From Scenedesmus sp. PABB004 (lineage: Eukaryota), in assembly GCA_014905635.1 (NCBI GenBank), contig JABVCE010000024.1, positions 62,001 through 126,000 of the forward strand: a stretch of 64,000 nucleotides of DNA. The letters run 5' to 3'. The notes beneath the pieces are model-generated. The model searched no databases and had not been told where the DNA came from. It saw nothing but the letters and a program-made list of their open reading frames with translations. Positions 9,272-46,177 of this stretch are shown here, piece by piece. Both the position numbers and the translations under genes were made by a program. The stretch's first letter is position 1. The number at the start of each line of letters is the position of its first letter.

Positions 9272-12047
9272 TCACGCCCCGAGCGCGAGCAGCAGCAGCG
9301 CCGCGCCGCCCGCCGCCGCGAGCGCGCCGGCAGCGCCGCCGGCGCCGCGGCGCGCGGCCGCCGCGCCGCTCGCGGCCGACGCGTTGGCCGCGGCCGCGAG
9401 CACAGCGTCGCTCTCGTTTGCGAGCGTGCCCTCCCCTGGACGCGCGGCCTTGAGCGCGTAATTGGTCGGCGCCAGCAGGCGGCCCTGGGGGCACGCGGAC
9501 ACGTCGAGCGCTCTCTCGCGCACCGCGCAGCCGTACCTGCGCGCGCGGGCGGGCGGCCGGCGGGCCGACAGCGGCGGGGCGGGGCGACGGTCTGGGCCCG
9601 TGGCGCGGCCGCGAGTTGGCGCTGCTGCCGCCGCCGGCAGCGATGTGGCACAGCGGCGGCGCGCAGGCAGGGGGGCGGCAGCGCGCACGTTGCGTTGAGG
9701 TATGCGTCCGTCCAGTGGTCCGCCACCTCTGGGCCGGGCCAGGGCTCGGTCTCGTTGGTGCTGAGGGCGCAGCCGGGGGCGCTGGCGTTCATGAAGACCT
9801 CGACGCCCACGTGGCGGTACGCTGGGGGCGCAGGCGAGTGTGAGGGTGGGTGTGTGAGCGTAGTATGTGCGATGGGAGCGTGAGTGTGTGTAGAGAGGGG
9901 ATGGACAGGGGCGCGCACGCGCGTGCGGCTGCGCGGCGGCGCGCGGCCGTGCGGCGGCGGCGGCGGCGCAGAGCCGCGCGGCGCGGCTCACTGAGGGTCT
10001 GCAGCGGCACGCGCGGCACGGGGTCGTTGTCGTGGACCAGGCGCCACGTCGTGTTGCGGCCGCCGAGCTCGTCGTTGAAGCTGCGGGCGCGGGCGGGCGT
10101 GTGTGTGGGTGTTTTGGGGAGGAGGGAGGCGGCAGCGGCGGCGGCGCGGGCAGGAGGCTGGGCCACTGCGCCTGACCTCCCTCCCCCAAAAAATCACAAA
10201 CACTGGCGCACGCGCGGCTTTCGCCGCGCTCACAGCTTGACCCAGTCCTTGTCGCCGACGCGCGGTCCGCCGAGCGTGTAGGTCAGCGGCGCGTAGCCGG
10301 CGCGCCACAAGTCGGCGGCCGCGAGCGTCGCGAGCGCGCCGCCGAGGCTGTGCCCCGTCACCCACACGACTGGCACGCCGGGCGTGGCGCTCGCGTTGGC
10401 CACGCCCGCCTTGACCAGCACGCCGCGCATGGACGTGAGCTCGCCCGCGTACTGCTTGACGCAGCGCAGCATCTCCTCGCGCACCGGCGAGTAGCTGCGT
10501 GTGTGTGTGTGTGGGGGGGGGGGGCGTGAGGGAGTGAGTCGGCGTGTGAGCAGGTTTAGGCGTGTGTGTTTGGTTGTGAGGCGAGACGGGGCGCAGGACG
10601 AGAGAGGGCGGCGCGGCGGCGCGGGCAAAGCCCCAGCGCGCGCGCGCGCGCTGGCCGGCGGCGGCGGCGCACGGCGCCCCGCGCGCGGGCGCGTGCGGCT
10701 CACGCGTCTGTGAAGCCGTCGTGCAGCTGCGGCCGCGAGAGCGGGCGCGGGGGCGGGCGGGGCGGTGGGCCAGCGGTGGCGCCCGCGGCTGCCCCCCCCC
10801 CCCACACACACACACACCAGGGCCCACCCTCTGCGTGCGCGGCGGCGGCGCTCACGTTGACCCCTGAGCCACCAAACATCTTGTTCCGCGCCGGCAGGAA
10901 CGACCCGAAAAAGTCGGCGTCCGTCGCCGCGTCGGCGCGGCTCGACGTGCCCCTGCGCGCGCACCGGCGGCGGCGGCGGCGGACCGGCACGTCGGCCCCT
11001 GCGGTGGCCGCTGCCGCACCCGCCCCGCTGCCGCCCGGGCCCGCCGTGCGCGCGCGCGCTCCTTGCCCCCCGCCGCCCCTGGCCCCCCGCCGCGTGCGTG
11101 CGCGCCTGAACACTATGAATACATGTTCCCTGCCGCCCTCCCCCCCCCCCCCCCCCCCCGCCCGCCCTTGCCCCCCGCCGCCTTGCCCCCCCCCCCCCGC
11201 CCCGCCGCGCCCCGCCGCGTGCGCGCCTGAACACCACGAATATGTTCCCGCCGTCGTCGCGCATGCAGAGGCCCTCGGTGTCGACCTCGTGCCGCCTGTC
11301 CACGGCGCTGAGGAAGGTCGCGCGCGTGATGCCGTGCGGCGCGGCCCACGCCGCAAAGCTCGACCCCACCTGCGCGAGTGTGCGCGCGCGCGTGCACGTG
11401 CGTGTTTGTGTGTGTGTTTTGGGGGGGCGGGGGGGGGGGGGGGACGCGCGCGCCAGCCGGCGGCAGCGCCGGCGGCCGGCGGCAGGCGGCGTCGGGTGCG
11501 GGCGCGGGTGCGCACGAGCGTGTCGTTGTCGGGCAGGGCCCAGGTGTCTGGGTAGACCGCCTTGCTGAGCACGGCCATCACATAGGCGTTGGCGGGGTTG
11601 AAGCGCGTGGTGTTGACCAGCAGCTGCGCGGCGGCGGCAGGAGGGCGGGGGCGGGGGCGGCAGCACCGCCGGCGTCGGCCCCCGCTCCGCGTGAGCGCGT
11701 GAGCGCGCAGCGCGGGCCGGGGGCGGCGACCGCCGCGCACGGCCGCAGGCAGGGGAGGGGCGTTGGTGGCGGCGGCGGCGCCGGCGCGCGTGCACCCGCT
11801 GCGCCGGCGCGCTGCGGCGCGGCTGGGGTGGGGCGCGGCGGCGCTGCGGGGCGGGGCGCGCGCCTTGGCGAACGTGCACTCCGGCTTGGCGCCCTTGGCG
11901 CCGCAGGCCGCCTCGGGCAGCGTGGCGTTGTAGGGTGCGGCGACGCAGGTCGCGTTGCAGCAGGTCAGGCCGGGGTCGATGCAGGCGTTGCCCCACGCGC
12001 CGCAGCAGATGGCGCCCTCCCTGCCGGCGCGACGGCAGCGGCAGGCA

Positions 12048-12090
<43 letters not shown>

Positions 12091-12270
12091 CGCGGCACGG
12101 GCCCGACGGCTGGCGGCACCCGCCCCACCCGCTGCTGGGCTGGCGCGCTGCGGCGCGGCGCGCCTATTGCCGCAGCGCCGGGGGTCCTCCTTGGCCCCGG
12201 ACGCGCCGTGCCAAGCCAGGCAGGCCGCCAGCGCCAGCGCCAGCGCGGCGCGGCGGCGGCCGCGGGCCAT
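9272..12270 (-). CDS. Secreted class-3 (fungal-type) triacylglycerol lipase with N-terminal Cys-rich module and probable GPI-anchor signal; 10 exons
   Basis: Spliced model: signal peptide MARGRRRAALALALAACLAWHGASGA; Cys-rich ICCGAWGNACIDPGLTCCNATC; IFVVFRGT; LHDGF; nucleophile motif VTGHSLGGALA; YTLGGPRVGD; RLVHDNDPVPRVP; YRHVGVEV; DHWTDAY; hydrophobic tail AALLLLALGA*. Confidence 0.9.
10499..10817. repeat. 26-bp perfect inverted repeat (GT)7G12 / C12(AC)7 in two adjacent lipase introns
   Basis: 10499-10524 is the reverse complement of 10792-10817; the arms bracket the 23-nt exon 10704-10726. Confidence 0.8.
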
Positions 12271-12951
12271 CGCAGCGGCACTGCGCGGCGGCGAGCAGCG
12301 GCGGGCGGCGGGTGAGCTGCCCGCCACGCGGCGCGGAGCGCATCCACGCAACGCAAAGCTGAAGTTTCAGACGTTGCTCCGGGAACGAGCGGCCCCTGCA
12401 GCACTCACCGGCTGCTGCTGCTGCTGCAGGCCCGCCGCCAACTGCCGCGCGGCGCGATCGCACGCACAGCCCGCCACGCTCCCGGCGCCGACGCAGCCTA
12501 TCAACGCGGTCGCGCGCTGCCGCAACTGCGGTCGAATCAGTCAAGAGTCGGCGTTTTACACTGCGGGCCCCGAGCCCTGCACCCCACACAACTCCTGCCT
12601 AGCCCCGCACGCGGGTGATACAGAGTGTGATGCCTCGTGGGTGGGCCGCCCCCGGCTTGTGAGGTGGTGGGTGTGAGCTGTACAAATGCGAGCGCGCACG
12701 CACACGCCTGGGCGGCGGCGGCGGCGGCGGTGCAGCGGGTGCGCCGCCGCCGCGCCTGCGCGCGCAAAACACAGAGACGCGATGCGAGCCGCCCAGCCGC
12801 CAGCCCCCCTCTCTGTGCGCCCGCCCGCCCGCCCTCCCGCTCACCCACCGGGCCGCCCGTCCCCGCCGGCGCGCGCGGGCTTGCGGCGACGCGTCAGGGC
12901 CCGCGCAGGAGACGGGGCCTCAACGGCCCTTCATGGCCCTCCATGGCCCTT

Positions 12952-14523
12952 TCAGGGCTCGAGGGGCCAGTCGAGGTATGCGTAGCCTTCGAGCCGCGAG
13001 CGACAGAAGGGGCAGCTCGCGGCGCCGCCGCTCAGCTCCCACACGCGGCGGTAGCAGTCGACGCACAGGCGGTGCCCGCAGTACTTGATGGCCACGTGGT
13101 TGCGGCTGTCAAAGCACACGCCGCAGCACTCCTCGTCGCCGCTGCTCAGCGACGCGGGCGGGCTTGCGCCGCAGAGCGACGAGCCGACGCTGCCGCCGCC
13201 GGCGGCGAGCGGGCTCGCAGGCGCGCGCGGCGGCGCCGGCGCGGCGGGCGCAGTGACCGCAGCCGGCTGCTGCTGCGCCGCCACCGGCGGCGGCGGGGCC
13301 TCGATGTCAGCCGCGCCGCCAGTGGTGGCCTCCGCCCGAGCCGCTGCCACTGCCGCTACCGCCGCCGCCCTGCGCCCGCTGCGGCTGCTGCGCCGCGCAG
13401 CGCGCGCTGCCGCCTGGCGCTCGTAAAACTCAGCCGCGCGCGCCGCCTGCGCGGCGTCGCCCGCGCGCTGCAGCGCCTCCACCGCCTCGCCCGGCTCCTC
13501 CACCAGCACCAGGCGGCAGTGCGGGGCCGCGGCCTCGGCCTGCGCCGTGTGCGGGCGCGCAGCGGGGCGGGGCGGGGCGGCCGTCGGCCGCCGCGCCGGC
13601 GCGCGCCGCGCCGCCTGCTGCCGCGCACCGCCCCGCGCCCCGCCGCCGCCGCGCCGCGCGGCCGCCGCGCGGGTGCCGCCGCGCCTGCACGAGCTGCCGC
13701 AGCGCGGGCAGGCCGAAGGGGATCTTGTTGCCCAGGAGGCGCAGCTGGCGCAGGCCGCGCGCGGCCGCCGTGGCGCACGCGAGCGCGGCGACGCCCCCCT
13801 CGCTGAGCTCGTTGGCGCTCAGGTCGAGCACCTGCCGGCGGCGCGTGCGCGCGCGTGCGCGTGCGCGTGAGAGTGAGCAAGCAAATCAGTGTGTGTGGGT
13901 GAGCGAAAGGGAGAGGGAGGGAGAGCGAGTGGAGGGAGCGGCCGTCGCACACCGTGCGCGGGGCGCTGCCAGCGGCGCCGCGCGCGCGGCAAAAAACACA
14001 GGCGCGCGGGCTGCGCGGCGCGGCGCGGCGCGGCGCGGCGCGCCGCCGTGCCTGCAGCGTGGCGTTGACCGCGAGCGCGCTGCTCAGCGCCGCGCCGCCG
14101 GCGTCGCCGATGCGGTTGTCCGCCAGCACGAGCCGGCGCAGCGGCGGGCTCGCGCGCAGCACGTCGGCCATCACGCCCGCGCCCTCGTCGCCGAGGCCCA
14201 GGCCGGTGAGATCGAGCGTGTCGAGCTCCCGGAAGAGCAGCGGCGCGCGCGCCATGCAGCGCGGCACGTCGTCGCCCGCGACGACGAGCACCAGCTCAGG
14301 CCCGGCGCCCGGGGGACCGGCCCCGCGCCGCCGCCCTTGCTGCCGGCGCTGCCGGGCGGCGAGCTGAGCTCGCCGCCCGCGGGCGCGGGCGCGGCGGCGC
14401 CGCTGAACCACGCGCCCGCCGCGGCGCTGCTGCCCGCCGCCGCGGGCCGGGGCTCACGACGCCAAACGCTGCGGCCGGGTGGTGCGGCACCTCGACCGGC
14501 GGCGGCGCCGTCCACGCGCGCAC

Positions 14524-14575
<52 letters not shown>

Positions 14576-17334
14576 GCCGCCGCCGCCGGCCGGCGCGAGC
14601 AGCGGCGCGCGCTCGTCGTCGTCGCCCGGCGTCGCCGGCGGCGGCGCGCCCGCGCCGGGCGCCGCCGGCGCGAGCGGCGCCGCGTCGCCGCCGCCGCCGC
14701 CCCCGCCGTCGTGCTCGTCCGCGTCCGGCCCTGCCAGGCCCTGCCACGCGTCCATGATGAGGGCATCCTGGTCTGACACCGCGAGCCACCGCACGCGCTC
14801 CAGGCCCTGCACCGTGAAGGTGCCGATCGGGAGGTTGCAGGCGAGGCTGGGCGGCGCCTTGGGCGCCGCCTGCGCGGCCACCGCGGCGAGCAGCTTGCGC
14901 GCGCCGTCGGTCGCGAGGTCGGCCTGTGAGACCGCGAGCACGCGCAGGCTGCTGCTGCTCGTGAGCGCCTGGGCGGCGGCGCGGCCGGCGGCGGCGGGTG
15001 GTGGTGAGAGGGGCAGCAAGCAAGCCGCGCGCCCCCCAATCCCCTGCCACCCATCACACACCCACGCCACACACAGACAGACGCGCGCCGCCCGCGCGCG
15101 CGCACCTGCGCGAGGCTGTCGGTCGCCGCCGGGCCGAGCGCGACAAAGGCCACGTTGAGCCCCGTCAGCACCTTGCTGCACGCGGCCGCCGCCGCGATGG
15201 CCGCCGCGCCGTCCTCGCCGAGGCCCTGGCTGCCGGCCAGGTTGAGCTGGCGCAGCGTCTTGTTGCCGCGCAGGCCGGCCGCGAGCGCCGCGGCGGGCGG
15301 CGCGGCGGAAGCGGCAGCGGCACAGCTCCAGCTGCTGCAGCGTCGGCGTCGCCTCCAGCAGCCGCGCGAGCGCGGCGGCGGCCGCGCTCGTCAATGACGA
15401 CCTGCGCGGCGGGCGGCGGGCGGCGGATGGAGGGCCCGCGCTCGGCGGCGCTCGGCGGACCTGCCCACACACACACGCCTCGCATGCCCCCATCCCCCCC
15501 CCCCCCCCCCACACACACACTCCAACACCCACCTGGTGGAGCTGCAGGCTGCGCAGCGCGGCGCAGCCGAGCAGCGCGGGCGGCAGCTTGGCCGCGTCGC
15601 GGCCGGCGAGGCTCGCGCTGACGAGGCGCACGACCGAGGCGTTGGGCACGTGCGGCAGCGCCTCGGCCAGCAGCTGCGCGCGCGCGCGCGCGCACGAGCG
15701 GGTGGCGGCGGCGGGGGCAGCCGAGCGCGGTGTCAGCAACACGGAACCTCCTGCCGCCTGCCCCTCGCCGCCGTGGGCTTCAACCCTAAACCCTCAACAC
15801 CCAACCCCCTATACCCCGGCCGCCCACCTGGCCGAGCATGACGTCGGGCGTGACCTCCAGCACCACCTCTGCCACGCCCGGCCCGCCGTGCGCGCCAAAG
15901 ACGACGCGCGCGAGCGCCATGAGCTGCCCCGGGGCCAGCAGGCCGCCGTTGGAGGGCGTGAGGTACTCGGGGACCATGCTCGCAGCCTGGGCGGCCGCGA
16001 CGCCAGCGTGAGACAAGACGTGTGCGGTGGAGGCGGCGGCGGCGCTGCGTGAGACAAGACGCGCGCGGCGCTGCGTGGCGCTGCGCTGCGCTGCACGGCA
16101 CTGCGCCGCGAGCTGGGGGGCGCGCGCTGCCGCCGCCGCCCCCGCCCCAGCGCCCCGCCCCCCGCTCCCCACCACCCAGCACCCGCGCCGCACCGCGTCC
16201 GAGGCGTCGTCGGGCGGCTCCTCCGCGCTGCAGAGGTGCACGACGCGGCCGAGCGCCGCGCCGCCGGCGCCGCCGCCGCCGCGCAGCACGCGCGCCAGGT
16301 TGTCGCGCAGCACCGGCAGGCTGAGCCGCGCCGAGCCGCGCACGCGGAGCAGCGCGAGCGCGTGGCGCGGCCAGCCCGCGCCGCTCGCGGCCGCGGCGGC
16401 GCTGAAGAGCATGGACTTGTCCACCAGGTTGGCGGCGTGCGCGACCAGCGCCTGCGGGGGATGGGGGGCGGGGTTAAGGGTTTGAAGAGGGGAAGGCGAG
16501 GGGACGCGCGGCGCGGGCGGCGGCGGTGCAGGCGCAGGGCGGCGCAGGGGGAGGGCGACGCGCGCGGCCGCGGCGCGCCGCGCCTGCAGCAGGATGGGCC
16601 AGGGCACGGGCACGGCGGGGCCGGCGGGGCTGGCGTTGCGCGCGAGCAGCGCGGCGATGACGCACAGCTCGGGGGCGGACTGCAGCCAGGCCTGCAGCAC
16701 GAGGCGGCTCGTCTTGAAGTTCTCTGTGTGGGTGGGGTGGGGGGGAACGGGCGTGGGGGAAAGGGGGAGGGGGGAGTGTGGGTGGGCGGGCGGTGGGGCG
16801 TGTGTGGGGGTGTGGGTGGGTGTGTGGGGGGGGGGGAGGTTGAAGCACACACACACCACTGGCAACACAGGCCCTTGCGCGGCCAGCAAGGCCCCCCCTA
16901 ACACTCACACAACACAACACACAACACACACACACGACACGCACAGCACACAATAATAATACACTCACCGACGTAGACGAGGTCTGTGTACTTGAACAGT
17001 CCCTTGCGCGGCGCGGCGGTCACGACCGCGGCGGCGAGGTCTAGAATGAGAAGCGAGAAGAGCAGCGCGGTCGCGAGGTAGCACACGACGCAGTAGGCCA
17101 CAAACAGCAGGCCTGGGTGGGGTGAGCGGGGGTGAGCGGGGGTGAGCGGGTGCGTGGGGTGGGGGGGGGGGGGTGGGGTGTGTGTGTGTGTGGGGGGGAT
17201 GTGTGTGAGTGTGAGTGTGGGCGTGTGTGGCCGCCCGCCGCGCGCGCCCGCCGCGCCGCCGCGCCCCCTTGCGCGCGCGGCGGGCGGCCCCGCGCACAGA
17301 GGCGGCTGCTTTGCTTGGCCTCCCCACGCGGTGC

Positions 17335-17380
<46 letters not shown>

Positions 17381-18534
17381 CCAACCCACTCCCATAGCCC
17401 TATCCGACCGCCGCACAGCCCTGAACCGCGGCGGGCGGCGCGCCGCGCACCCGAGGCGGCGATGAGCACATAGGCCACAAACCCCACCACGAGCACGGCG
17501 AGCCCCGCGACGCCCTGGGGCAGGGGCGCGAGGCTCTCAAAGGGGTTTAGGCTGAGAATGAACCCGCACGCCTGCGCCGCGGCGGAGAGCCAGCCCTGGC
17601 GCACGATGAGCAGGAGCGACATGACCACGTGGGGCCCGAGCGTGAAGCCGGTGCCCAGCCCCGCAAACAGCAGCGACCCCGCGCCGTACAGCTCCTGCGG
17701 GGCGGGAGGGGGGGGGGGGGGGGCGGCAGGACGGGCGCGGCGCCGGTTGGTCGGAGAGAGAGAGAGGGGGGGGGGGGGGCGCGGCGAGGCTGCTGCGCCG
17801 GGCGGCCGGGCGGCACGGCGGCCGACCACTCCCGAGACACACCCACACCCACACCCCACCACCCCCACCCCCCCCACCCCCACAGCCCCACCCACCTTGA
17901 GCAGCAGCGCGTCGGCCACGATGGCCCAGTAGAAGAGGGCCAGGCGCGCCACGTCAGCGACGTAGCACGCGACGCCCGACCCGCACGACGCGCGCGCCGC
18001 CTGCGCGGCACCGGCGCGGCGCGCGCGTGCGCGGTGGGCGCGCGAGCACGGCGCGCGGGCAGGCTCCGCCGCCACCGCGCGCAGCTGCCGCCGCGCGCGG
18101 GCGCGCCGGCGCCGCACCGCGTCGATCACGCCGCGCTCGTCGTCGCTCTTGCGCGACGCGTCCTCGCCGCCCTCGCTGCCGCTGCTGAGCAGGCCCGTCT
18201 CGATGTCGGCGCCGCCGCCGCTGCCGCGCTCCGACGCGATCTCGCCGCCCCAGTCGCTGCCGGCGGCGCGGGCGCGTCGCCGGCGTCGGCGGGCTCGCCG
18301 CCGAGCAGCGGCGCCGACAGCTCATCGTCCTGCGCGCGGCGCCGGCGCGCGGGCGCGGGGCGGGCGGGCGCGCGTGTGAGGCGCGCCCCCGGCGCTGCGG
18401 GGCGGCGGCAGGGCTGCGGCGCGGCGCGCTGGCGGCGGCGGAACGCGCCCGCCGCGCGGCGCCACTGCCGCCGCCGCCGCCGCCGCCGCCGGGGCGCGCT
18501 CGCGGCGCCGCCGCACCCGCGCTGCCCTTGCCAT
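12952..18534 (-). CDS. Multi-pass membrane protein: XK-related-like TM region + ribonuclease-inhibitor-type LRRs + C-terminal C3HC4 RING finger; ~13 exons
   Basis: TM exons FYWAIVADALLLK|ELYGAGSLLFAGLGTGFTLGPHVVMSL and RLVLQAWLQSAPELCVIAALL. LRRs LRSLQLHQ, LQQLELCRC, LRQLNLAGSQGLGEDGAAAIA, LDTLDLTGLGLGDEGAGVMA, LRRLVLADNRIGDAGGAALS, LDLSANELSEGGVAALA. RING CGVC..CGHRLCVDC..CPFCRS, stop at 12952. The start exon (MARAAR, 18517-18534) and four 1-nt frame breaks are inferred. Confidence 0.75.
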
Positions 18535-18867: not shown

Positions 18868-20130
18868 ATGGCCACCGAGCGCAGCTACATCATGATCAAG
18901 GTGCGGTCGCCTCGCAGCCAGCCCGGCCGGCGTGGCCGGCGTGGCCGGCGCAGGGACGCGCCGCGCGCAGGCGCCCGCCAATCGTTGATGGCCGCCGGCG
19001 GGCGCGCCCGGGCGCGGCTGGGCCCAGGCGCCGCGCCCACGGCTAGGCAACAGCGAGGGCAACCGCGGGCGCGCCGACGTGGGGCGCGCCCGCGCCCCGT
19101 CACGCCGCGCCGCCGCCCGACGCCCCGCCGCGCCCGCCGCCGCAGCCGGACGGCGTGCAGCGCGGCCTCGTGGGCGAGGTCATCAAGCGCTTCGAGCAGG
19201 TGCGGCTGGGAGCGGCCCCGGCGCGCCCGCGCCCGTGCGCCCGCGCCCCGCGCGGCCGCGCAGCAACCGCCCGCGCCGCAGCGCGGCTACAAGCTCGTCG
19301 GCCTCAAGATGCTCAACGTCGAGCGCAGCCTCGCGGAGAAGCACTACGCCGACCTCAGCTCCAAGCCCTTCTTCGGCGCGCTCGTCGACTACATCGTCTC
19401 CGGCCCCGTCGTCGCGATGGTGCGCGCCGCAGCCGCAGCCGCCGGCGCCGCCGCCGCGCCGCCGGCGCTGCCGCTGCGCGCTGCGCGCCGCGACGGCGCG
19501 CCCGCACGGCGCGCGGCACGTGGGCCAGGCCCAGCGCGTGCCGCCCAGCGCGCCGCCGCGGGCCGGCTCCGGGCTGTGCCGCCGCCGACGCCGCGGGCGC
19601 CGCCGCCGCCGCCGGCGCCGCAGGTGTGGGAGGGCCGCAACGTGGTGCTGACCGGGCGCAAGATGATCGGCGCGACCAACCCCCAGGCCAGCGAGCCCGG
19701 CACGATCCGCGGAGACTACGCCATCGAGGTGCGCAGCGCGCAGCGCGCGGGGCGGGCGGGGCGGGGCGTGCGCGCGGCGCTTGCAGGACAGGGCACGCGC
19801 GCGGCGCGGGCGGCGGCGGCGGCTGCCCGCTGCGGCGGCGCCGCCCGAACAGCGCGCCGCCGCCGTGCGCGCAGGTCGGCCGCAACGTGATCCACGGCAG
19901 CGACAGCGTCGAGAACGCGCAGAAGGAGATTGCGCTCTGGTTTGGCGGTGAGCGGGCCGGCAGGCAGCGCGGGCGTGCGCGCGGGAGGCAGGCGGCGCGC
20001 CGGCGGGGTGTGCGGCGGCCGCGGCGGGCACGCCGCGTGCCGCGCCGCTCACCGTGCGCCGCGGCGCCGGCCGGCCGCAGAGGAGCTGGCCGACTGGACC
20101 CCCGCCGCGCGGCCCTGGATCTACGAGTGA
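18868..20130 (+). CDS. NDPK1: Cytosolic nucleoside diphosphate kinase (type I), 6 exons
   Basis: [39 protein letters not shown]...[11 protein letters not shown]...[11 protein letters not shown]...[60 protein letters not shown]; active-site HGSD; all introns GT-AG. Confidence 0.97.
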
Positions 20131-20805: not shown

Positions 20806-23800
20806 ATGGGCTGTGTGGGGTCCAAATCCGAGCCGGCGGGCGCCGATGATGCGGCGCTGCCCGCGGCGGAGCCCAGCGACCTGGCCGCTCCAGCCGCTGC
20901 CCAGGCGCCGCTGCCGAGCGAGGAGCCGGAAGCCAAGAGCCAGCCTGAGCCCGGCCCCAGGGACCTCAGCGAGCTCATGCGCCAGGTAGGTGGGCAGCAG
21001 CGCCGGGTACGCTGCTGCCGCGAGTGCCGCCGCGCCCTCTGCTCCGCCGCCGCCGCCAACCGGCCCGCCGCACCTCCCGCACAGGTCCTGAACACGCTGC
21101 GGGAGCTGGCGGTGATCGAGGCGGACGGCTCGCGTGCGTCAGCCGACGCCGCGGCCGCCGTGCTGCTGGCGAGCTTCCCCGAGGCCGACCACGCCGCGAT
21201 CTCCATGTGCCGGGGCAGCATGAGCGTGCTGGCGGGCGTGGCCGGCGAGGGCACGGCGCTGGCGCGGGAGCGGCCGCTGAGCACGGACCCGCGCGTGGCG
21301 GCGGCGGTGGTGGACGCGCAGGGGACCGCCCGCGCGTCGCTGCTGATGACCGTCGCCGCCGGGCAGCCGCCCCCCGACGCGCTGCCGCCGGTGGGTTGGC
21401 GTGTGGGCGGCGCGCGGGGCGCCGCTCGTGCGCGTGCGCGCCGCGACCGCCGCCCGCGCGTCCGGACGCGCCCGCCGCCCCCTCGCAGGACTGGCGCCGC
21501 CTGCACGAGCGCGCGGGCCTGTCGTCGTTCGTGGCGGTGATGCTGTGCGCCGCGGGCGAGCCCCTGGGCGTGGTCACGCTGGCGTCCAAGCAGGCGGGCG
21601 CGTTTGACGAGCCGTGGTGGGACTTGATCCTCGGCATGCTGTCGCCGGGCTTCAGGGCGCTGCTGGGCCACCACCTGTTTGGGGGCCTGCTGGAGCTCGT
21701 CCACGGGCTGCACAGCCGCCGAGACGACGACCCGCACGTCTTCACGGCGCAGCTGCTGCAGGTGCGGCGCGCGCCTGCCCGCCAGCGCGCCGCTGCTGCA
21801 GAGCCTGCGTCACGTGCTGCCGTCGGTGTCCGCACGCAGGGCGCTGCCGCGCTGCTTTGGAGCGCCACAAAGCACCATGTGCACGTGCGGCTGGGGCTGG
21901 TCACCCCCGACGGCAGCACGGTGCTGCTGCAGCACCTCGTGCAGCACCAGGAGACCAGCAATGGCAGCGCCCCAGGTGTGTGGCGCCGCTGACGTCTGCG
22001 GCGGGCGGCCGGGAGGCCCCGCCGGCTGGCGCGCCCACCGCAGGCTGCCGCGCCGCGCGCGTGCGCTGGCCGCAGGTGGCGCGCGTCTGCGGGCCATGCG
22101 CCTGGATGCGGAGCGGTGCATTCTGCAGGACGCGCTGCAGAGCAGGGCGCCCCGGCTCGTGAACGACCCAGCCAAGCTCGCACAGGTGAGGGCCGGGGGT
22201 GTTGCGCGGGGGGGGGGGGGGGGGGCGCCGCCGCGCAGCGGCGCTGCACGAGGGCCGCGGGCCGAGCCCGCGCCGCGCGCGCGCGCGCGCGGCCCGCAGG
22301 AGTCCACGCGCCCGCCCCTGGACCTGCTGGTCAGCGGGCAGGAGGGCGCGGCGGTGCTCGCCGTCATCCCGTTCACGCTCACGCACGCGTCCGCGGCGGC
22401 CGGCGGCCTCTACTTTGCGTTCGACGCCCCCGGCGCCCTGATGTCAGGGCCCGTGCGGCTGGCGATCACCAACGTGGCTTCAATGCTTGAGCTCGCCGTC
22501 CTGGACGACAAGCTGCAGCCCGGCGGCCTCCTCGCGCGCGCACTCGGCGACGGCGCGTCGCCCGCGGGCACGCCCCCGCCCGTGCCGGCGGCCGCGGCGC
22601 GGCTCGACATTGCACACATGGTGCAGGTGCGGCGCCCGCGGGGGCAGCCGCCGCCCCGCACGCTCCGCTGGTGCGGCGGCTGAGGGCTGCCACGCGCGCG
22701 CGCTTCGCCCCGCAGCTGATGCAGGCGCAGGTGCGGCAGCTGCAGGACCAGGCTGGCGGCGACGGCGACGGCGACGGCGGCGGCGGCAGCCGCCGCCGCA
22801 GCAGCGGCGGCGGCGGGGAGTACCTGCGAGAGCTGCAGCTGCTGCAGGTCATCGGGCGCGGGGGCTTTGGCGTGGTGTACAAAGGCACCTGGCAGGGCTG
22901 CGTGTGCGCGGTCAAGGTCGTGGCCGTGCCGCAGCAGCAGCGCCGCATGATGAAGGGCGCGATGGAGATGGCGGTGCAGCACACGCTCAGCCACCCCAAC
23001 GTCGTGCGTGCCCGCCCCGCGCCGCGCCCGGCGCGCGCGCACAGCACGCTTGCAGCGCAGCCCCCCGCGCCGCGCGCCGCCTGCCTGGCACCCCGCGCCT
23101 TCCTGCGCGCCAACCCGCGCCTGCCCGCGCCACAGGTGCGTGTGTTTGCTGTCTACTGTGACATGGTCGAGGAGAGGGGTGCGCGCCGCGCACTGTGCAC
23201 GCCCCCGGCGCGCTGCGCGCCGCGCCGCGCGGCCTGGCCGAGCCCGCCCGCGCGCCGCGCGCCGCGCGCCGCGCGTTGCAGTGAGCAGCGGCCGCGCCAG
23301 CTTCGACCCGACCGCGCTGCGCTACCGGCCGGTGGGGCCGGGCGACGCTGCGGGCGGCATGACCGTCAACATCATCGTCCAGGAGCTCTGCCGCGAGGGC
23401 TCGCTCAGCGCGGCCACGCGGCGCGGGCTGCTGCTGCTGCGCCGGCCGGCCGGCGGCGTGGAGGTCCACACGCAGCGCCTGCTGCTGGTGCGCGCGCGCC
23501 TGCGCCGCCGTGCGGCGCCTGCGCCGTGTGCGCGCGCGCCGGCGCGTCCTGAACCCCGCTGCGCCCCGTTGCAGGTGCTGCTGGACGTGGCGCGCAGCCT
23601 CGAGTACGTGCACGGTGTGGGACTGCTGCACAATGACCTCAAGTCGGGCAACGTGCTGCTGCAGGCCAGCGCCGGCAGCCCGCTGGGCGTCGTGTGCAAG
23701 GTGGGCGGGGCGGGGCGGGGCGGCCGGGTGGCGCCGGCGCGCGGCCGGCGGGCGCCGCGCAGCCCGTGCCGCCTGCCGCCTGGCTGCCACCGACGCCCTG

Positions 23801-24908
23801 CCGTCGCCGCGCTGCCCCTGCTGCTGCGCAGCTGGCCGACTTTGGGCTCGTCAAGGTGTGTGGGGGGGGGGGGGGGGTGTCTGTGCGTGCGCGCGTGTGT
23901 CAGGGAGGAAGCACCTGCGGGCGTGCACGGCAGTGCGCGCCCAACGTCGCGACACCCCGGCGGCCTCCACTCACCCACACCCACACCCACCCGCCCTCAC
24001 CCGCCCACCCGCACCCACCCACGCCCGCCACACAGATGATCGCCGAGCGCATGTACATCCGCAACAAGAGCGTGAGCGGCACGTGAGTGCGGCGGCCGCC
24101 GGGGCGCGCGCACGCCCCCGCGCGCTGGCCCCCGCGCAGCGCTCACCGCACCCCGCGATCCCCCTTCCCCCGCCCACGCGCGCCGCACGCAGCATCAACC
24201 ACCTCGCGCCCGAGCGCTTTGAGCCAGGCAGCCGCGTCGGCAAGGGCGTGGTGAGCGCCGGCGCCGCGCGGGCAGTGCTCGGGCCGCGCGCGCCGCCGCC
24301 GCCACACGCCGCCGCCGCTCAGGCTCGACCCCACCGCATGCCGCCGCTTGTGTCTGTGCCTGTGTCTGTCTGTCTGCGTCTGTGTGTCTGTTTGTTGTGA
24401 CTGCGCGCGACTGACTCGCAGGACATATACGCCTTTGGCATGCTCATGTTTGAGCTCTACACCCAGCGGCAGCCGTTTGACGGCCTGCACCCCATCGGCC
24501 TCGTGCGCGCGTGAGCGGCGGCGCGCGCCGCCGCGCCTGCTCACCCGCGGCGCACGCCCAGCGCGCCGCCCAGCGCTCGCCGCGCCGCCCAGCGCGCGCC
24601 GCCCAGCGCTCGCCGGCGCCGCCGCCGCGCGCAGCGTGATGCGCGGGGCGCGGCCCGAGTTCCCGCCCGGTACGCCGGCTGCCTACCGCGCCCTGGCTGC
24701 GGCGTGCTGGGCGCACAAGGCGGAGCAGCGCCCGACGGCGGCGTTCCTGGTGTCGACGCTGCAGGTGCGCGCGGCGGCGCCGACGACCGCCGCCGCGCGG
24801 CTGCGCACCGCTCACGCAGCCGCCGCCGCCGCCGCCGGCCATGCGCGCGCGCAGGGCATGCTCAGCCTGGGCCCGCCGGCTGCCGGCGCGGCTCGCGGTC
24901 AGTCATAA
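20806..24908 (+). CDS. N-myristoylated/palmitoylated GAF-like sensor + tyrosine-kinase-like Ser/Thr protein kinase; ~16 exons
   Basis: MGCVGSK start; GAF-like DWRRLHERAGLSSFVAVMLCAAGEPLGVVTLASKQAGAF; kinase motifs IGRGGFGVVYKG, CAVK, HPNV, HNDLKSGNVLL, ADFGL, GTINHLAPE, DIYAFGMLMFE, CWAHKAEQRPTA; TAA at 24906-24908. Confidence 0.88.
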
Positions 24909-25828: not shown

Positions 25829-28127
25829 ATGGACGCTGTGAACCTCCAGGCGCGCGCGGAGTCGGCCGGCGACCCCGATGGTGCGCAGGCGCCTCGTGGA
25901 CGCCGCACGCGCAGGGCGCCCCCTGCGCGCGCACACGCGCCGGGCCTCACCTCGCCTCCCCCAGAGCCGCCGCGTATGGCTGTGGTGCCAACGGACGCGC
26001 GCCCGCCGTCGCGCAGGCAGCAGCAGCCCGGGCAGCAGCCCCCGGGCGGGGCGCTCCTCGGCGCCCTCCTCCTCGGCCGGCGGGGGCCCGCCCCGCCGCG
26101 GCGGGATGCTCTGCCAGGTGCGTGGCCGAGCGTCGCGCGGAGATCGTGGCGAGCGAGCATGAGTCACTCGCGCCGCAACTCGCGCCGCTGTCCGCGCGCA
26201 GGTCGAGGGCTGCGCCGCCGACCTCGCGGCCGAGGGCGCCTACTGCGTGAAGCGCCGGCTGTGCAAGGACCACCTCAAGGCGCGCGCCACGAAAAAGCAG
26301 CTCTCTGAACCAGCTATCTGCTCGCCAGCGCCGCAGCGCGAGGCGCGGCACGCGCCGCTGAGCGGCGCCCGCCCGCCGCTCGCGTGCAGGCGGACGCCGT
26401 GGTGCGCAGGCGGCACGGCGACGGGCTGTGGCGCTTCTGCCAGCAGTGCGGCAAGCTCGAGCCGCTCGCGCAGTTTGACGGCGCCAAGCGGTGAGCAGGC
26501 AGGCCTCCGGCCCCGAGGCGGCGGCGCGCGCTCGACGCCTGTGCGCGCTGCCCCGCGCGACCCGACCGCGCGCCGACGCCCGCGCCGCGGCCGCCGCCGC
26601 GCGCAGGAGCTGCCGCGCCAAGCTCGAGCGCCGCCGCTTTGCGTCGAGCGCAGCGGCCAAGCGCGGCAGCGGGGGCGGAGAGCAGGCGGAGGACGAGGTC
26701 GCGCAGCTGCAGCTGCAGGTGTGGATGTACCAGCTCAAGGAGATGTCACGTGCGATGGAGTTGCGGCAGCAGCAGCAGGCGCAGCAGGGCCTGCCCTGGC
26801 CCCTGAGCGCCGCCGCCGGCCCGGCGTGCCCGGCACGCCTGGCGCCCCCGGCGTGCTCAACGCGCCCGCTGCGTCCAACGTGCGCGTGCCCTCGGCGGCA
26901 GGCGTGCCCGGCGTGCCCGGCGTGCCTGGCGTGCCCATTGTGCCCGCTGCTGCGCCCGACGTGCGCGTGCCCTCCGCGGCAGGCTTGCCCGGCATGCCGG
27001 GCGTGCCCGCCGCGCCCGCCTTCCTGCCGCCCGAGCCAGTGCCCGGCGTGCCGGCGCTGGGCGGCGCGCCGTTCCGCGGTGCAGGGAGGGCGCAGCCGAG
27101 CGGCCCGTGGCAGGCGGAGGCAGCGTCGCAGCTGCAGGCGCTCGTCAGCCTGGCCACACCCGGCGCCGCCGGGCCGGCGGGCCTGCCAGGCGGGGGCCTG
27201 TGGCCGGCCGGCGCTGGGCTTGCTGGCACGGCGCAGGGCGCGCCGGCTGCGGCGCACGGCGGCGCTCTGGCGCGGGGCGCTGCGCCGGCGCCGGTGCCGG
27301 GCCCCAGCACCGTTGACATGAGCCTGGAGCAGGACTCATTCATGGGCCTGCTCAGCCTCCTGCCCAGCGCCGCCGAGCAGCCTAGCTCGGCGGAGGGCCT
27401 GCTGCAGGCCCTGCAGGTGGCGCTGAACGACGCGGCGCCGCACGAGGTGCAGCCGCCGCAGGCCGCGCAGCCGCTGCTGCAGCCTGTGGTGGCGACCACG
27501 CTGCCGACCCCGGTGGCCGCGGGCGAGGGCACTGCCGAGCATGGCGCGCCGGCGACCGAGGCGGCCGAGGCGGGCACCGGCCAGCTGCGCCGCCCCAGCG
27601 CGTCCGCGGCGGTCGGCGCCGCGGCGGCGGCCGTTGCGGCGGCGATGGGGGGGCAGACGACGCTGGAGGCGTGCGCGTCGTTCCTCGCGGCCCTCCCCGC
27701 GCCCGGGGAGGGCAGCGGGAGCTTCATGGAGCTGCTGACCACGCTGCCCGGCGCGGACGCCCCCGAGCCGGCCAACACCTTTGACGACCTCGCCGCGGTG
27801 CTGGAGGCGGCGCTCGTCGAGGCGGGCGTCGCCGGCTGGGGCGCGGCGGGCGGCGACGGCGCCGGGCCCGTGCGCGGCGGCGACGGAGACGGCGACAGCG
27901 CGCGCAGTGGCGCTGCGCCCGCGCCGCCGGCGCGGCAGGTGGCGCTGCTGGCGGCGGCGCCTGCCGGCGCCCAGGCGCCGGCGCGCGCCCAGGCGCGCGC
28001 CGGCCAGGCATCAGCTGCGGCGCTGCAGCCTGCGCAGGGTGACGCGCGCCGCAGCTGCAGCTGGCATGGCGCTCCGTGCAACAGCTTGCTCAGCAGCACC
28101 GACGATTGGCAGCTCGGCTGGCAGTGA
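25829..28127 (+). CDS. SBP (SQUAMOSA promoter-binding) domain transcription factor with Pro/Gly/Ala-rich C-terminal region
   Basis: Spliced SBP domain MLCQ|VEGCAADLAAEGAYCVKRRLCKDHLK|ADAVVRRRHGDGLWRFCQQCGKLEPLAQFDGAKR|SCRAKLERRR. Start codon and frame breaks near 26000 and 26820 are inferred; stop at 28127. Confidence 0.85.
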
Positions 28128-36149: not shown

Positions 36150-39100
36150 ATGCGGGCTGGGGCAGCCGCGCTGCTGCTGCTGGCGTGCTGCGCGGCGGCG
36201 GTGCGCGCGCAGACCTGTGGGGTGGCCATCTGCGTCACGATCGACGAGAGCGGCAGCATCGGGTCTACCAACTTCGTGAAGGTCAAGAATTTTGTGGTCG
36301 ACCTGTTCAACCGGACCAGCGCCGTGGCCAACAGTACGGCGGGCGTGCGCTGCGCACGACCGCCCGTTGCGGCCGACCAAGGGCGGGCTGGGCCGCCGCA
36401 TGCCACACGTGGAGCCCGCGTCCGCGGGCCGACCACGGGCGCCGTCCTTGAGCCGACCGCGCTCGCCCGCCCGCCCTGCCCCCCCCCCCCTCGCCCCCGG
36501 CTCGACCCGCAACAGCGTACGAGTTTGGCGCGGCCCGGTTCTCGACGGGCGCGTCGGACCTGGTCACTCCGATGACGGCCAACGCTGCGACCGCCATGTC
36601 CGCGGTCAGCAGCATGATTTACGGTGGCGGGAGCACCAACATGGTGTGCTGGGAGGGGAGAACTGCTTTAAAGCATTGTTGTTTTAGGGTGCAGGAGTTG
36701 TTATTCATGCGCGCGCCTGCGGGGGGGGGGGGGGGGGGGGCTGTGGCTCTGCTGCGCAGCGCGCGCCTGCCGCCGCGCCTCGCGCGCACTGAGCTGCCGC
36801 CGCGCCGCCGCGCTGCCCGCAGGAGGGCGGCATCGCGCGTGAGCCCTGCGCGAGCGCGCCACGGTGCTGGCCGTGCGGCGCTTGCGGAGTCCACTGATCT
36901 CACCGATGCGCGTGCCGCCGTGCGTGCGCAGGCTGCTTCAACAAGGACTCTGGCTCAGACGCCGGCATCCTGACAACCACCAGCAATGCCGCCCTGTCCC
37001 GGATCCTGGTCTTGCTCACCGGTGCGGTGGCGGCGGCAGCTGCGGCCAGGGCTGCGCGGCGCAGCGGAGCCGCGAGGGCTAGCGCCGCAAAGCGCAATCC
37101 AACGGCCAGCGGGGGGAAAGCTCTCAGCCAGCCGCCGCCTCACCACCCCGCTCCCTCCGTGCTGGCCGCCCCCGCCGCCACACGCAGATGGCAAGCCAAA
37201 CCGGGTGTATTCATCAACCCCGCCGGGCTGCTGCTCCGGTAGTACGACTTGCCAGCCGTCCGACTACATCTCTGGCTCAGACATCTCGGCATGCGCCAAG
37301 GACACCGTCACACGCAGGGGTGGGTGCTGGCGCTGCTAGCGGCTGAGCGTGCGGCGCCGCCGGGGGGCCGGCCCGCCCCCGCACCAACCGCGGCGCGCGC
37401 GCCCCCGCTCCGCCCACCCCTGCCTCTGCCTCCCTCTCTCTCTCTTACGCCCCAAGCCGCCACGGTGCGGGCCGCTGGCATCACCTTTGTCACCGTCGGT
37501 GTATCATCGGGCGTTGACGACACCTTCCTGGGAGGCCTGGGCCAGTACTACAAGGTCTCCAACTTTTCCGGCCTGGCGGCATACGTCGAGTCGGTCGCCA
37601 CGGGCGTCTGCACCGACGCGAGCGTGACCAAGGCCGTCGCATCTACATCTGAGCCGCTCGGGAACAACTTCACGTTTACGGTGACCATCACCAACACGGG
37701 CAAGTTCGACATCGCGTCAGCGGCAGCCAGCCCCATGGTTTTCACCGACACGCTGCCGTCGGGTCTCACGTTCCAGGCCGGCAGCGTCGCGCCCGGCGCC
37801 GGCAGCCCGCCAGGTGCGGGGTGGGGCGGCGGCGCTCCCCGCCGGGGCGCCGTTGGCGTGCGGCGACTGGCCCGCCGCGCCACGTGTGTGGAGGTGCAGG
37901 CTGCGCGGTGCCGTCGCACCAACGGCGGCACCACGCTGCTGTTGCGACGTGGCCGTGGCGCCCCAGCGCCTGCCTACCAGTGGGCGCTGCCAGCCCGAAG
38001 CGCCTAGCTTCTGCTGACACGCCCCTCACCCCCGTGCTGCCGTGTTGCGCGCAGCCAATTGCTCCTACACGAGTGCCACGCGCGCACTGCGGTGTTCAAT
38101 CACAAGCGGCACCCTGCCAGTGGGCGGCGCCACCTCCTGGTCCTACACGTACACCGCGGCCGCCACCACGGCCGGCACCTTCAGCGTCCCAACCGTGCTG
38201 TCACCATTCCGTGACAACAACGCGGGGAACAATTACGCCTCGTTGGCCGTGACGGTGACGGGGGCAGCCACCCCAGTCTCAGGTGCGCGTGCGCACTCGC
38301 TGCGGTCAGGCCCTGGTGGCCAGGTTGCGGCAGGCCCTGCCTGGCTGGCTGGCGTGTGCCGGCAGCAGCTGCGCACATCGCTCGCTGCAGCGCTGGGCGC
38401 GTCGGCGAGACAGCGCGCACGCTGCCCCGCAGACCCGACGGTCAGCGTGTCCCTGTCTGCGTCCACCGTGCTCATTGGGAGCAAGCTCAATGCCACAGTC
38501 ACTGTGACAAACCAGAGCCCCTCCGTTCAGGCCATCAACGTGGTCACTGAGTACACACTGCCGGCTGGGCTCGACTTTGACAACAGCACGTCGCCACCAG
38601 CCGGTGCGCGGGGTGCCGGCTCCTCCCAGGGCTGCACAGATGTGTGAAGCCGGGCGCCACTCCATGACGCGCCTGCTGCGCTGCCGCGCCGCCACGCGCG
38701 CAGGCTGCTCGGTGAGCGGCAAGGTCCTCACCTGCGCAGCCGGCAACATGTCAGCGAGCGGCAGCGCGGCGCATGTCGTCGGCCTGGTGGCCGTCCAGGA
38801 GGGCGTGTGGGACAGCGAGGCCGTTGTCGATGCGGACAATGACGGAGATGCCACCAATAACGGACCGGTGGTAGCAACGGTGACTGTCTTGGCCACGTGT
38901 GATGTGTACAACCCCGATGGCACTCGGTTTGGATGCAGCGCTGGCTCCATCTTCAACACCACGGCCGGCAGTGACCCGGGGCCTGACCAGGATACGTGCT
39001 GCGTGAGTGGCTTGCTTGGTGGGAGGGGTGGCTGCCACGCGGCAGCCAGCCAGCGCTGGCTGCACTGCGCTGCCAAGCTGCGCTCCAGCTCAAGGACATG

Positions 39101-45100: not shown

Positions 45101-46177
45101 GTGAGAGCTACTCCCTCACGGTGCGCGTCAAGGCGTCACGCGATGGATCCTTCACCAGCAGTGCCACGGTCAGCGCCACCGGCGACGGCCAGAAAGCCAA
45201 CAACCGATACAACGCAAGAGTCACCGTGGTGCGTGGTTCCGCCCCGCGCGCAGCCTGGCACCCGGTCTAGGCGCTGGCCCGGCTTGCAGGCGTGCCCGCT
45301 CGCATCAGGCTGACCAGGCAATGATGTGCCGACGCCTGCTTGCAGGTCAACGGCGCGTGTTGTGCGCCCGACAAGACCTGCCGGCTGGTTGACGAGTCTG
45401 CCTGCGTTGCCGGCACCTACATGCCTGGCCAGACGTGCGACAGCGCGACTTGCAGGCTCGTGCCGGCTGCGCTTCCCCTCGGCGCGTGCTGCGACGTGCA
45501 GCGCGGCCAGTGCGCGGTGGTGACACAGGCTAGCTGCGCATCAGGCGCCTGGACGCAGGGCGCCAACTGCACCGTGGACGTCTGCCCGCAGGCAGTGAGT
45601 GGCGGCTGAGCGCAGCGCGGCTGCTTGTCCCTCTTGGCCCTGCTGGCCAATTAGCGCGCGCAGCTGCCGACGTGCGGCGTCCCCGCCCCTCCCGCAGTTC
45701 TGCACGCCGGACTGGCGCATGTGCACGCCGTCCGTTGGGAGCGGCTCCAGCCCCTGCTGCAACCCCACGAGCGCGTGCAAGCCCGTGCAGGGCCTCAAGA
45801 CGCGTTGGTACGCCTGCACGCTCGGCGAGGCCTGCCGCGCTGAAGGCCAGGCCTGCGGCTCGTGCCCCGGTGGCGCTTCGTGCTGCGACGGGCTCACCTG
45901 CAAGTGGGAGCACAAGCGCGGCAACGGCGTGTGCACAAAGCCGTTCACGTGCGCCCAAGACGGCGCGTCCTGCGCCTCAGCGCAAGACTGCTGCCCCGGC
46001 TCCACCTGCGGCTCCGACGGCAGGTGCCGCGCCTGCGACTGCAACCGCGCGTGCGCGAAGCACGACAAGGCATGCGAGGCGGAGCGGGAGTCAGAGTGCA
46101 AGAGCCTGTCGGCGGTTGTTGCCAGCGCCGTTTTGCCCGGCCCAGGCGGCGCCGTCATCCAAGTGCGGGGGGCCTGA
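36150..46177 (+). CDS. Giant secreted adhesin-like glycoprotein, paralog 1: signal peptide, vWA domain with MIDAS, 11 DUF11/Ig-like modules with Cys-rich linkers, Cys-rich C-terminus
   Basis: MRAGAAALLLLACCAAAVRA signal; IDESGS..GGSTNM..ILVLLTDGKPN..ITFVTVGV; modules such as DASVTK..FTFTVTITNTG..FTDTLPSGLTF..DNNAGNN; CGxxxDGCGGT and GACC repeats; no TM segment seen; stop 46177. Confidence 0.85.
39247..40330 (+). repeat. Intron-less 537-bp exonic tandem duplication (Cys module + DUF11) x2 in paralog 1
   Basis: TGCGGCGCCACGATCAAC at 39247 and 39784; nearly identical units. Confidence 0.95.
40890..43660 (+). repeat. ~740-765 bp exon+intron tandem array x4 (DUF11 + Cys linker) in paralog 1
   Basis: GGCAGCAAGCTC anchors at ~40944, 41696, 42458, 43199; introns are repeated with the exons. 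Confidence 0.93.

Follow-up and report, generated by a model that had tools for sequence, protein, structure and literature searches.

Does a single gene of the alga Scenedesmus sp. PABB004 join a membrane domain resembling the XK-related (XKR) lipid scramblases to leucine-rich repeats (LRRs) and a RING domain, and what might such a protein do? The question is raised by positions 12952-18534, minus strand, of a 64,000-nucleotide (nt) stretch of contig JABVCE010000024.1 (assembly GCA_014905635.1, positions 62,001 to 126,000), hereafter called the window. A preliminary description, made from the DNA letters, had proposed one spliced gene for a membrane sensor that couples ligand recognition to ubiquitination and possibly to lipid scrambling in defence or cell death. 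Our analysis indicates that the gene belongs to a small green-algal family whose product is probably a cytosol-facing LRR-RING E3 ubiquitin ligase held by a polytopic membrane anchor, the predicted anchor being most like the N-terminal repeat (ND) of XKR proteins.

The three parts belong to one gene. A search with the translation of positions 17386-17691 (minus strand) returned 13 proteins. Four full-length orthologues of 869-1180 amino acids (aa) were found, namely Tetradesmus obliquus A0A383V493, a Hariotina reticulata gene model, Raphidocelis subcapitata Rsub_07777 and a Monoraphidium minutum protein, together with a partial orthologue from M. neglectum (P0011) that consists of the transmembrane (TM) region only; all five species belong to the Sphaeropleales (confirmed by look-up for three). 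The order of a membrane domain, ribonuclease inhibitor (RI)-type LRRs in two blocks and a C-terminal C3HC4 RING was seen in orthologues from seven Sphaeropleales species; shared features of the retrieved sequences are an acidic N-terminus with (D/E)ELxVPLL, a hydrophobic region, LRR_6 repeats and the C-terminal RING. The conceptual product of the PABB004 copy is 63-67% identical to the Scenedesmaceae orthologues over 745-801 aligned columns, far past chance. Two intron-less homologues on metagenome contigs of 72-75% G+C (L001, 5714-10963; L002, 9215-14026) hold all three parts in single stop-free open reading frames (ORFs) of 1749 and 1603 codons, with all tblastn segments in one frame and ending in the same RING. 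In addition, one transcript contig of Flechtneria rotunda (P0200) carries a 1025-aa ORF that includes the N-terminus, the membrane domain, the linker and both LRR blocks, is uninterrupted over the equivalents of 8 of the 11 exon junctions proposed below, and runs into a retained intron after "...NTSLQ". The large exon 10 corresponds to a single continuous genomic ORF in a relative (P0044). These results agree with the preliminary description, whose end coordinates also coincide with the start codon (18534) and the stop codon (12952).

This is a genuine family with no published description, and its architecture is new to the literature. Public databases name its members only "RING-type domain-containing" or "hypothetical", and literature searches on the accession names, on XK-related proteins or scramblases in green algae, and on LRR, RING and transmembrane proteins in Chlorophyta yielded no described protein with the three-part architecture, as had been supposed. 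The family is small, and single-copy wherever it was seen. A profile search of a 1.84-billion-protein set used an alignment (A1) that included the LRR columns, so that distant relatives of the membrane domain could have gone unseen; giant LRR proteins dominated its best 150 matches, among which the useful ones were exon fragments and a divergent cluster (P0015) with the same domain order. A near-length search of a 5.8-billion-protein set recovered the four full-length members and no others. In metagenomes, an alignment of the TM region alone retrieved three loci (L001, L002 and L003), a single-exon query gave no match, and no relative was found on viral contigs. L003 is identical to L002 from the membrane domain to the end, so a comparison of nonsynonymous and synonymous substitution rates is uninformative. 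L001 and L002 are syntenic: LpxC-like and DAAF5-HEAT genes flank the homologue in an identical order, with RRM, ApaG and RPA-OB genes also on the contigs. These neighbours mark an intron-poor eukaryotic genome of a flagellate, green-alga-like kind, a second lineage whose proteins are only 41-42% identical to the PABB004 product. A precomputed match to PF27087 is present on all four full-length orthologues (P0003, P0004, P0010 and P0012) and absent from the TM-only P0011, which places PF27087 within the LRR-RING part.

The reading as a ubiquitin ligase is well founded as far as domain content can indicate it. The last exon of the gene itself matches zf-C3HC4_3 (PF13920) with 33.8 bits (E 2.9e-8; cut-off 27), and all eight zinc ligands are present at 12988-13134 in the spacing C-x2-C-x11-C-x-H-x2-C-x2-C-x14-C-x2-C. 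The nearest solved RING domains are those of CBL-B and c-CBL (E 4.6e-7), with which a Trp and the CPFCR ending align; we take these to be the E2-contact and linchpin positions. The proposed C3HC4 RING is thus confirmed, and so are the RI-type LRRs. LRR_6 scored 24.7 bits on the window's own sequence (cut-off 23.4) and 52.5 bits on P0010, and the family profile, from the exon beginning with SMVPEYLTP onwards, matched ribonuclease inhibitor, NLRP LRRs and axonemal LRR proteins with E values of 2e-26 to 1e-8 (RNH1, 3.6e-23 over about 190 residues; the LRRs of NLRP1, NLRP3, NLRP5, NLRP9 and NLRP14 were also matched). The earlier count of about eight repeats needs revision, since the aligned sequence, read by eye, gives about ten, arranged as about six repeats, a low-complexity linker and about four more. 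Pfam scans detected no NACHT, NB-ARC, TIR, SAM or death-fold domain in any member. A RING was found on none of 13 generic LRR proteins without the membrane domain, a sample too small for a claim of rarity. No hydrophobic span lies between the LRRs and the RING, so both must be on the same side of the membrane, presumably the cytosol, which does not suit the idea of a membrane sensor acting as an extracellular receptor.

The layout of the membrane domain was derived from hydropathy and two AlphaFold models of P0011 (pLDDT 63.7 and 67.9). The 230-260 aa of the domain form six membrane helices and a single re-entrant element. In P0011, TM1 spans residues 15-45 and TM2 residues 49-74; a short helix pair follows at 76-96, containing the most conserved stretch of the family (RQGWL..AA.QA.GFIL.LNPFE), which is likely the re-entrant helix. 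A very hydrophobic segment with an invariant Asp (103-155), a hydrophilic helix (164-201) and a final helix (213-241, by hydropathy and in both models) complete the domain. Cytosolic loops with Arg and Lys alternate with outer loops carrying acidic Asp residues, and the hydropathy and charge patterns together fit a predicted N-in/C-in topology. Comparisons with hhalign revealed no internal repeat in the membrane domain (probabilities below 1%).

Is this domain related to XKR proteins? According to the accessible portions of PMC8298096 and PMC12334663, the XKR fold consists of two related repeats, ND and the C-terminal one (CD), with eight TM helices and partly inserted helices. When model 1 was ranked against 48,161 chains, XKR9 came first, Xkr4 second and XKR8 16th; with model 2 (VIA-align), Xkr4 came first (8.6), XKR9 third (8.4) and XKR8 fifth (7.7). 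XKR8, XKR9, XKR4, XK and CED-8 (PF09815) are thus the family that best matches the algal domain in structure, and the best alignments cover mainly XKR residues 3-191, that is, ND. The Foldseek search of the TM region that had been proposed beforehand, run on 350,542 chains, also gave XKR9 as the best match of model 1 (E 1.1, prob 0.72). ESM-feature neighbours of P0011 and P0015 pointed the same way: both proteins, 44% identical to each other, led to clusters in which PF09815 occurs in 12-25% of the members (scores 0.86-0.90). The sequence motifs of the two families can be set in parallel. The pattern F-x2-(A/S)-x3-D in TM1, which follows the aromatic-x6-Asp pattern of XKR proteins, was found in eight of eight members and in the PABB004 copy. 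The hydrophilic helix, with a mean hydropathy of 0.36 and the pattern ...SRLxLQAxLQSxP(Q/E/S/A)L, resembles XKR TM3, which the available part of PMC8298096 describes as a long hydrophilic helix that hydropathy predictors miss and that is kinked at a conserved PQL motif. The kink reads PQL (LQSxPQL) in both Monoraphidium proteins, PEL in the PABB004 copy and the Scenedesmaceae, and PSL or PAV in the metagenomic lineage, the equivalence with XKR TM3 having been aligned by eye. A partly inserted helix after TM2 and cytosolic placement of both termini are further shared features.

These likenesses have to be weighed against the possibility that the membrane domain is a helical anchor peculiar to this lineage and unrelated to XKR proteins, and that its likeness to them is a generic similarity of tilted helical bundles combined with a chance short motif. 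Several results tell against an XKR relationship, and at the sequence level every test failed or reached noise level only. The Pfam XK-related profile (PF09815) matched one of 16 family sequences, P0003, with 13.4 bits (E 0.037) against a cut-off of 24.8, and a TMEM260-like Pfam match on P0004 was as strong, so the XK-related match is at noise level; no PF09815 match was obtained on the gene's own membrane ORFs and exons. A profile of the TM region alone (A3) found no Protein Data Bank (PDB) sequence at E <= 10. Its 53 matches in the 5.8-billion set contained no XKR protein and no stand-alone relative; they are short, 49-100% identical to the query and without Pfam annotation, and were taken to be fragments of the same family. 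Both AlphaFold models are of middling confidence, the XKR scores lie within the noise band of helical bundles and, with model 2, are tied with an unrelated chain, and Foldseek gave no match at E <= 0.001 for either model, its XKR matches having E values of 1.1 or more. Moreover, the helix register varies between XKR matches (model residues 15-243 against chain residues 4-191 in one, 15-256 against 4-253 in another), and the ESM Atlas's own low-confidence model of P0011 matched claudin/MARVEL folds (TM score 0.43-0.45), not XKR.

An unrelated anchor, however, does not readily account for the appearance of three separate XKR clusters within the first 16 places (model 1) and the first five places (model 2) among the 48,161 chains, or for the fact that the ESM features of two proteins only 44% identical both lead to PF09815. 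In addition, the TM1 motif and the Pro-kinked helix occur in XKR order, and the weak Pfam alignment, which pairs residues 93-271 of P0003 with positions 4-150 of a 337-position profile, runs colinearly with the family model. We therefore regard an unrelated anchor as a real possibility, though not the favoured one, and judge homology to the XKR N-terminal repeat slightly better supported than its absence, as a reasonable but unproven remote relationship. The XK likeness given in the preliminary description thus holds for the structural ranks, the ESM neighbours and the motif helix, and it is confined to the N-terminal repeat and to scores that are below threshold or in the noise band. There are also differences from XKR proteins. 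The algal domain corresponds approximately to ND, whereas XKR proteins have two repeats with eight TM helices plus re-entrant helices; about 30 additional hydrophobic residues separate TM2 from the kinked helix; of the four acidic residues needed for scrambling, three are missing; the caspase- or kinase-regulated tail is absent, with an LRR-RING ligase in its place; and the family falls below the Pfam threshold and is algal, not metazoan.

The region around the gene has about 78% G+C and all six reading frames are open over long stretches, so that ORFs alone prove nothing and homology was used instead. The exon model was accordingly built from colinear tblastn matches of the orthologues on the minus strand together with splice signals. 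It runs from the ATG at 18534-18532 to the stop codon at 12954-12952 and has 12 exons, totalling 3486 nt (a multiple of three), and 11 introns of 131-338 nt. All 11 acceptors are CAG; eight donors are GT and three are GC (16583, 14051 and 13684, minus strand). The GC donors lie in the contexts CAG|GCGCGGCG (twice) and CAG|GCACGG (once), the local GT consensus being CAG|GTGCGG. Several introns are filled with CA/GT and GGGGTG-type microsatellites, and C/G homopolymers of 29 nt (17338-17366, intron 3) and about 25 nt (17699-17723, intron 2) were also observed.

The membrane part is encoded by exons 2 to 6. Exon 1 (18517-18534) is hypothetical: it would encode MARAAR from the start ATG, with a GTGCGG donor at 18516 and a CAG acceptor at 18330, and its sole support is that the three-frame translation contains no in-frame ATG ahead of the conserved DDELSAPLL. 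Exon 2 (17896-18329), traced by tblastn and three-frame translation, encodes the acidic N-terminus (DDELSAPLL, ADIETG) and TM1 (FYWAIVAD) and contains a frame anomaly near 18264. Exon 3 (17451-17694), 72-74% identical to Tetradesmus, encodes TM2, the stretch RQGWL..AA.QA.GFIL.LNPFE with its invariant columns and the next hydrophobic span. Exon 4 (16969-17112; 83% identity) is very hydrophobic, with the invariant intramembrane Asp (LLILDLAA) followed by FKYTDLVY. Exon 5 (16584-16723, tblastn) encodes the hydrophilic helix ENFKTSRLVLQAWLQSAPEL, which is like XKR TM3 with its PQL kink; the 132-nt in-frame segment after it (16452-16583) can be read as a GC-AG intron or as a loop rich in Pro and Ala. 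Exon 6 (16194-16451) encodes the final membrane helix (ALVAHAANLVDKSMLF; helix 213-241 in both models) and an acidic linker. The strings quoted in the preliminary description are all present here, the first being contiguous only after removal of a 201-nt GT-AG intron (17695-17895): FYWAIVADALLLK ends exon 2 (to 17896), ELYGAGSLLFAGLGTGFTLGP begins exon 3 (from 17694) and LQAWLQSAPELCV lies in exon 5.

The LRR solenoid begins in exon 7 (15828-15986; SMVPEYLTP..., 78% identity), from which the family profile aligns to LRR proteins, and continues through exon 8 (15533-15673, tblastn) and exon 9 (15106-15401), which has a weak LRR_6 match and two +1 frame anomalies (near 15380 and 15298). Exon 10 (14052-14968) holds the end of LRR block 1, a low-complexity (GCG)n linker and the start of LRR block 2; the LRR_6 match of 24.7 bits lies here, as do the GC donor at 14051 and three frame anomalies (near 14510, 14441 and 14320), the first two of which cancel. 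Exon 11 (13685-13831) encodes the final LRRs (VLDLSANELSEGG..LRQLRLLGNKIPF) and ends at the GC donor 13684. Exon 12 (12952-13539) encodes the helical stalk, a low-complexity spacer, the C3HC4 RING (about 12988-13134, with the zf-C3HC4_3 and CBL-B RING matches) and the stop codon (12952-12954).

Relative to the orthologues, this copy therefore carries six frame changes, near 18264, 15380, 15298, 14510, 14441 and 14320, and as assembled it is not translatable into the conserved protein, which counts against a functional gene. DDELSAPLL and ADIETG lie in different frames, and translation continued without a frame change from the proposed junction of exons 1 and 2 runs into a TGA at about 18126. 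In exon 9, VVIDERG, AAALARLLEATPTLQQLELCRCRF and LRGNKTLRQLNLAG lie in three different frames, and inspection found no alternative splice sites that would rescue the frame. In exon 10, the blocks APLL, AAAFGVVSP, AWFSG and ELVLVVAGDD can be joined only through the three frame changes. There is no room for introns between the frame-shifted conserved blocks. Nevertheless, of 234 columns that do not vary among four orthologues, 220 are retained in the read-through product, as compared with 59-93% when each real orthologue is left out in turn. The figure is 100 of 104 downstream of the first break in exon 9, and 34 of 34 in the RING exon. The branch length of the copy is ordinary in a tree over 807 columns. 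This conservation and the ordinary branch rule out an old pseudogene.

A recent pseudogene, in which the six frame changes and the three GT>GC donor changes are real mutations, is a tenable but less likely explanation. Six frame anomalies and three GC donors occur in a single gene, assembly is an unlikely source of substitution errors at three donor sites, and the neighbouring NDK, protein-kinase and SBP-domain pieces show no obvious frame jumps. That last comparison carries little weight, since the exons concerned are short and lack repeats; the pieces are separated by intron-sized gaps, and argue neither way about the indel rate of the assembly. On the other side, conservation past the breaks equals that of intact orthologues, the branch length is ordinary, and at least some of the frame anomalies fall within short GC-rich repeats or next to them (a repeat at 15281-15308 and a (CGC)60 run at 14525-14708), where consensus indels are common. 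Two of the GC donors, CAG|GCGCGGCG, mirror the local GT consensus, which suggests usable GC-AG introns, and the GC donors may reflect a high share of GC-AG introns in a very GC-rich genome. A functional orthologue with assembly indels in GC-rich repeats is, on prior grounds, most likely, although a recent pseudogene retains an appreciable share of the probability. Annotation of the locus, whether as a gene or as a pseudogene, should await a check at the read level.

How might a protein of this kind work? As a membrane-anchored LRR-RING ligase, it would be held by its N-terminal 230-260 residues, with both ends in the cytosol and in an arrangement most like XKR ND. The two cytosolic blocks of RI-type LRRs (about six and four repeats) could bind a substrate or ligand and so capture a target at the membrane, and the CBL-like C3HC4 RING, at the extreme C-terminus after the helical stalk, would recruit an E2 and ubiquitinate the captured target. 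The XKR-like module would then anchor the protein and might also sense lipids or a partner, with no scrambling of the XKR8 type. A more far-reaching and unlikely idea is that the domain is a single-repeat XKR fold that forms a homodimer, is ancestral to the two-repeat animal scramblases and has a vestibule gated or read by the LRR-RING part, thereby coupling lipid state to ubiquitination.

The proposal made in the preliminary description, that in defence or cell death the recognition of a ligand by the LRRs is coupled both to ubiquitination and to lipid scrambling of the XKR type, appears rather improbable. In its favour, the module resembles XKR ND, the site of the scrambling vestibule proposed in the accessible text of PMC12334663, and it retains the polar helix and an Asp equivalent to D30 of Xkr8 (eight of eight members and the PABB004 copy). 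As far as the available part of PMC8500837 reports, Xkr8 scrambling requires D26, D30, K/R134, E137, E141 and R183, and alanine mutants at D26, E137 and E141 abolish it. In a motif alignment anchored on the TM1 F-x2-x-x3-D and on LxSxPxL, the equivalents in all members seen are A or S for D26, Q or H for E137 and Q for E141. The C-terminal repeat and the regulatory tail are missing as well: after the membrane domain the chain runs straight into more than 700 residues of LRRs, stalk and RING, with no short inhibitory tail. Lipid scrambling is thus not borne out, and Pfam finds none of the NACHT, TIR or death-fold domains in the family. Nothing ties the family to defence, and the suggested role in defence or cell death is speculation. 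Finally, that gene prediction fused a small membrane-protein gene with a separate LRR-RING gene is very unlikely, since, although two transcriptome ORFs (P0001, 217 aa; P0006, 181 aa) end past the membrane exons and none of the transcripts found covers the RING, the short ORFs (P0001, P0006 and P0199) terminate through intron read-through, P0200 from the same species as P0006 carries on through LRR block 2, L001 and L002 are stop-free throughout, and introns of only 131-338 nt leave no space for a promoter or terminator.

The family can also be compared with other known systems. LRSAM1 is a soluble protein with coiled coils and a SAM domain, and RNF145 and TRC8 differ from the algal protein in their sterol-sensing-type membrane fold, which is unrelated to the algal one, in their RING-H2 type RING and in the absence of LRRs. 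The algal LRR profile matches the LRRs of RNH1 and the NLRPs; unlike NLRs, no member of the family has NACHT or NB-ARC (the central STAND NTPase). The algal RING aligns with that of CBL, including the Trp and the CPFCR ending, whereas the family lacks a TKB or SH2-like domain and combines LRRs with the RING in a membrane-anchored protein. LRSAM1, described in the accessible parts of PMC8567218 and PMC11863841 as an animal E3 with LRRs, SAM and a C-terminal RING that marks cytosolic bacteria, likewise places an LRR recognition module before a C-terminal RING in one polypeptide; the algal protein differs in its RI-type LRRs, its polytopic membrane domain and the lack of a SAM domain by Pfam. With RNF145 and TRC8, as presented in the available portions of PMC6292692 and PMC5656429, it shares a multi-pass membrane domain and a cytosolic RING, which offers a functional analogy for linking membrane or lipid state to ubiquitination.

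In the surrounding window, an NDK gene (Pfam NDK, E 3.5e-24) lies at 18880-20100 on the plus strand, divergent from the LRR-RING gene; about 350 nt separate the two start codons (frames read by eye), and a three-codon upstream ORF (ATGGCCTGA) is present at about 18569 on the minus strand. A class-3 lipase piece (10233-12404, minus strand), protein-kinase domain pieces (22800-24800, plus strand) and an SBP-domain (squamosa-promoter-binding-like) gene at 26200-26500 on the plus strand, interrupted by one intron of about 113 nt, were also identified. Farther away, at 37200-45300 and 51800-61100 on the plus strand, are large arrays of DUF11 (PF01345) repeats, a domain that is mostly prokaryotic and would be unusual in an alga. 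DUF11 was matched in 21 of 148 stop-to-stop ORFs scanned (E 6e-6 to 4.5e-37); many matches span only profile positions 1-57 and stop at the ORF end, and neighbouring ORFs are parted by single stop codons, as if an intron occurred at the same place in each repeat.

If this reading is correct, three modules never described together, namely an XKR-like half-domain, cytosolic RI-type LRRs and a CBL-like RING, would be united in a family that spans Sphaeropleales green algae and an uncultured, intron-poor relative. Its members would then represent a novel type of E3 ligase that resides in the membrane and carries its own recognition solenoid. The anchor of the family could be the first XKR-fold relative outside animals, with a bearing on the origin of the two-repeat form and on the role of a lone N-terminal repeat; were the single-repeat, homodimeric idea also true, the XKR fold would extend beyond Metazoa and offer a tractable minimal system for studies of mechanism. 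Culturable species (Tetradesmus, Raphidocelis and Monoraphidium) carry the family, which has few members and a single copy wherever it was seen, so that these ideas are testable.

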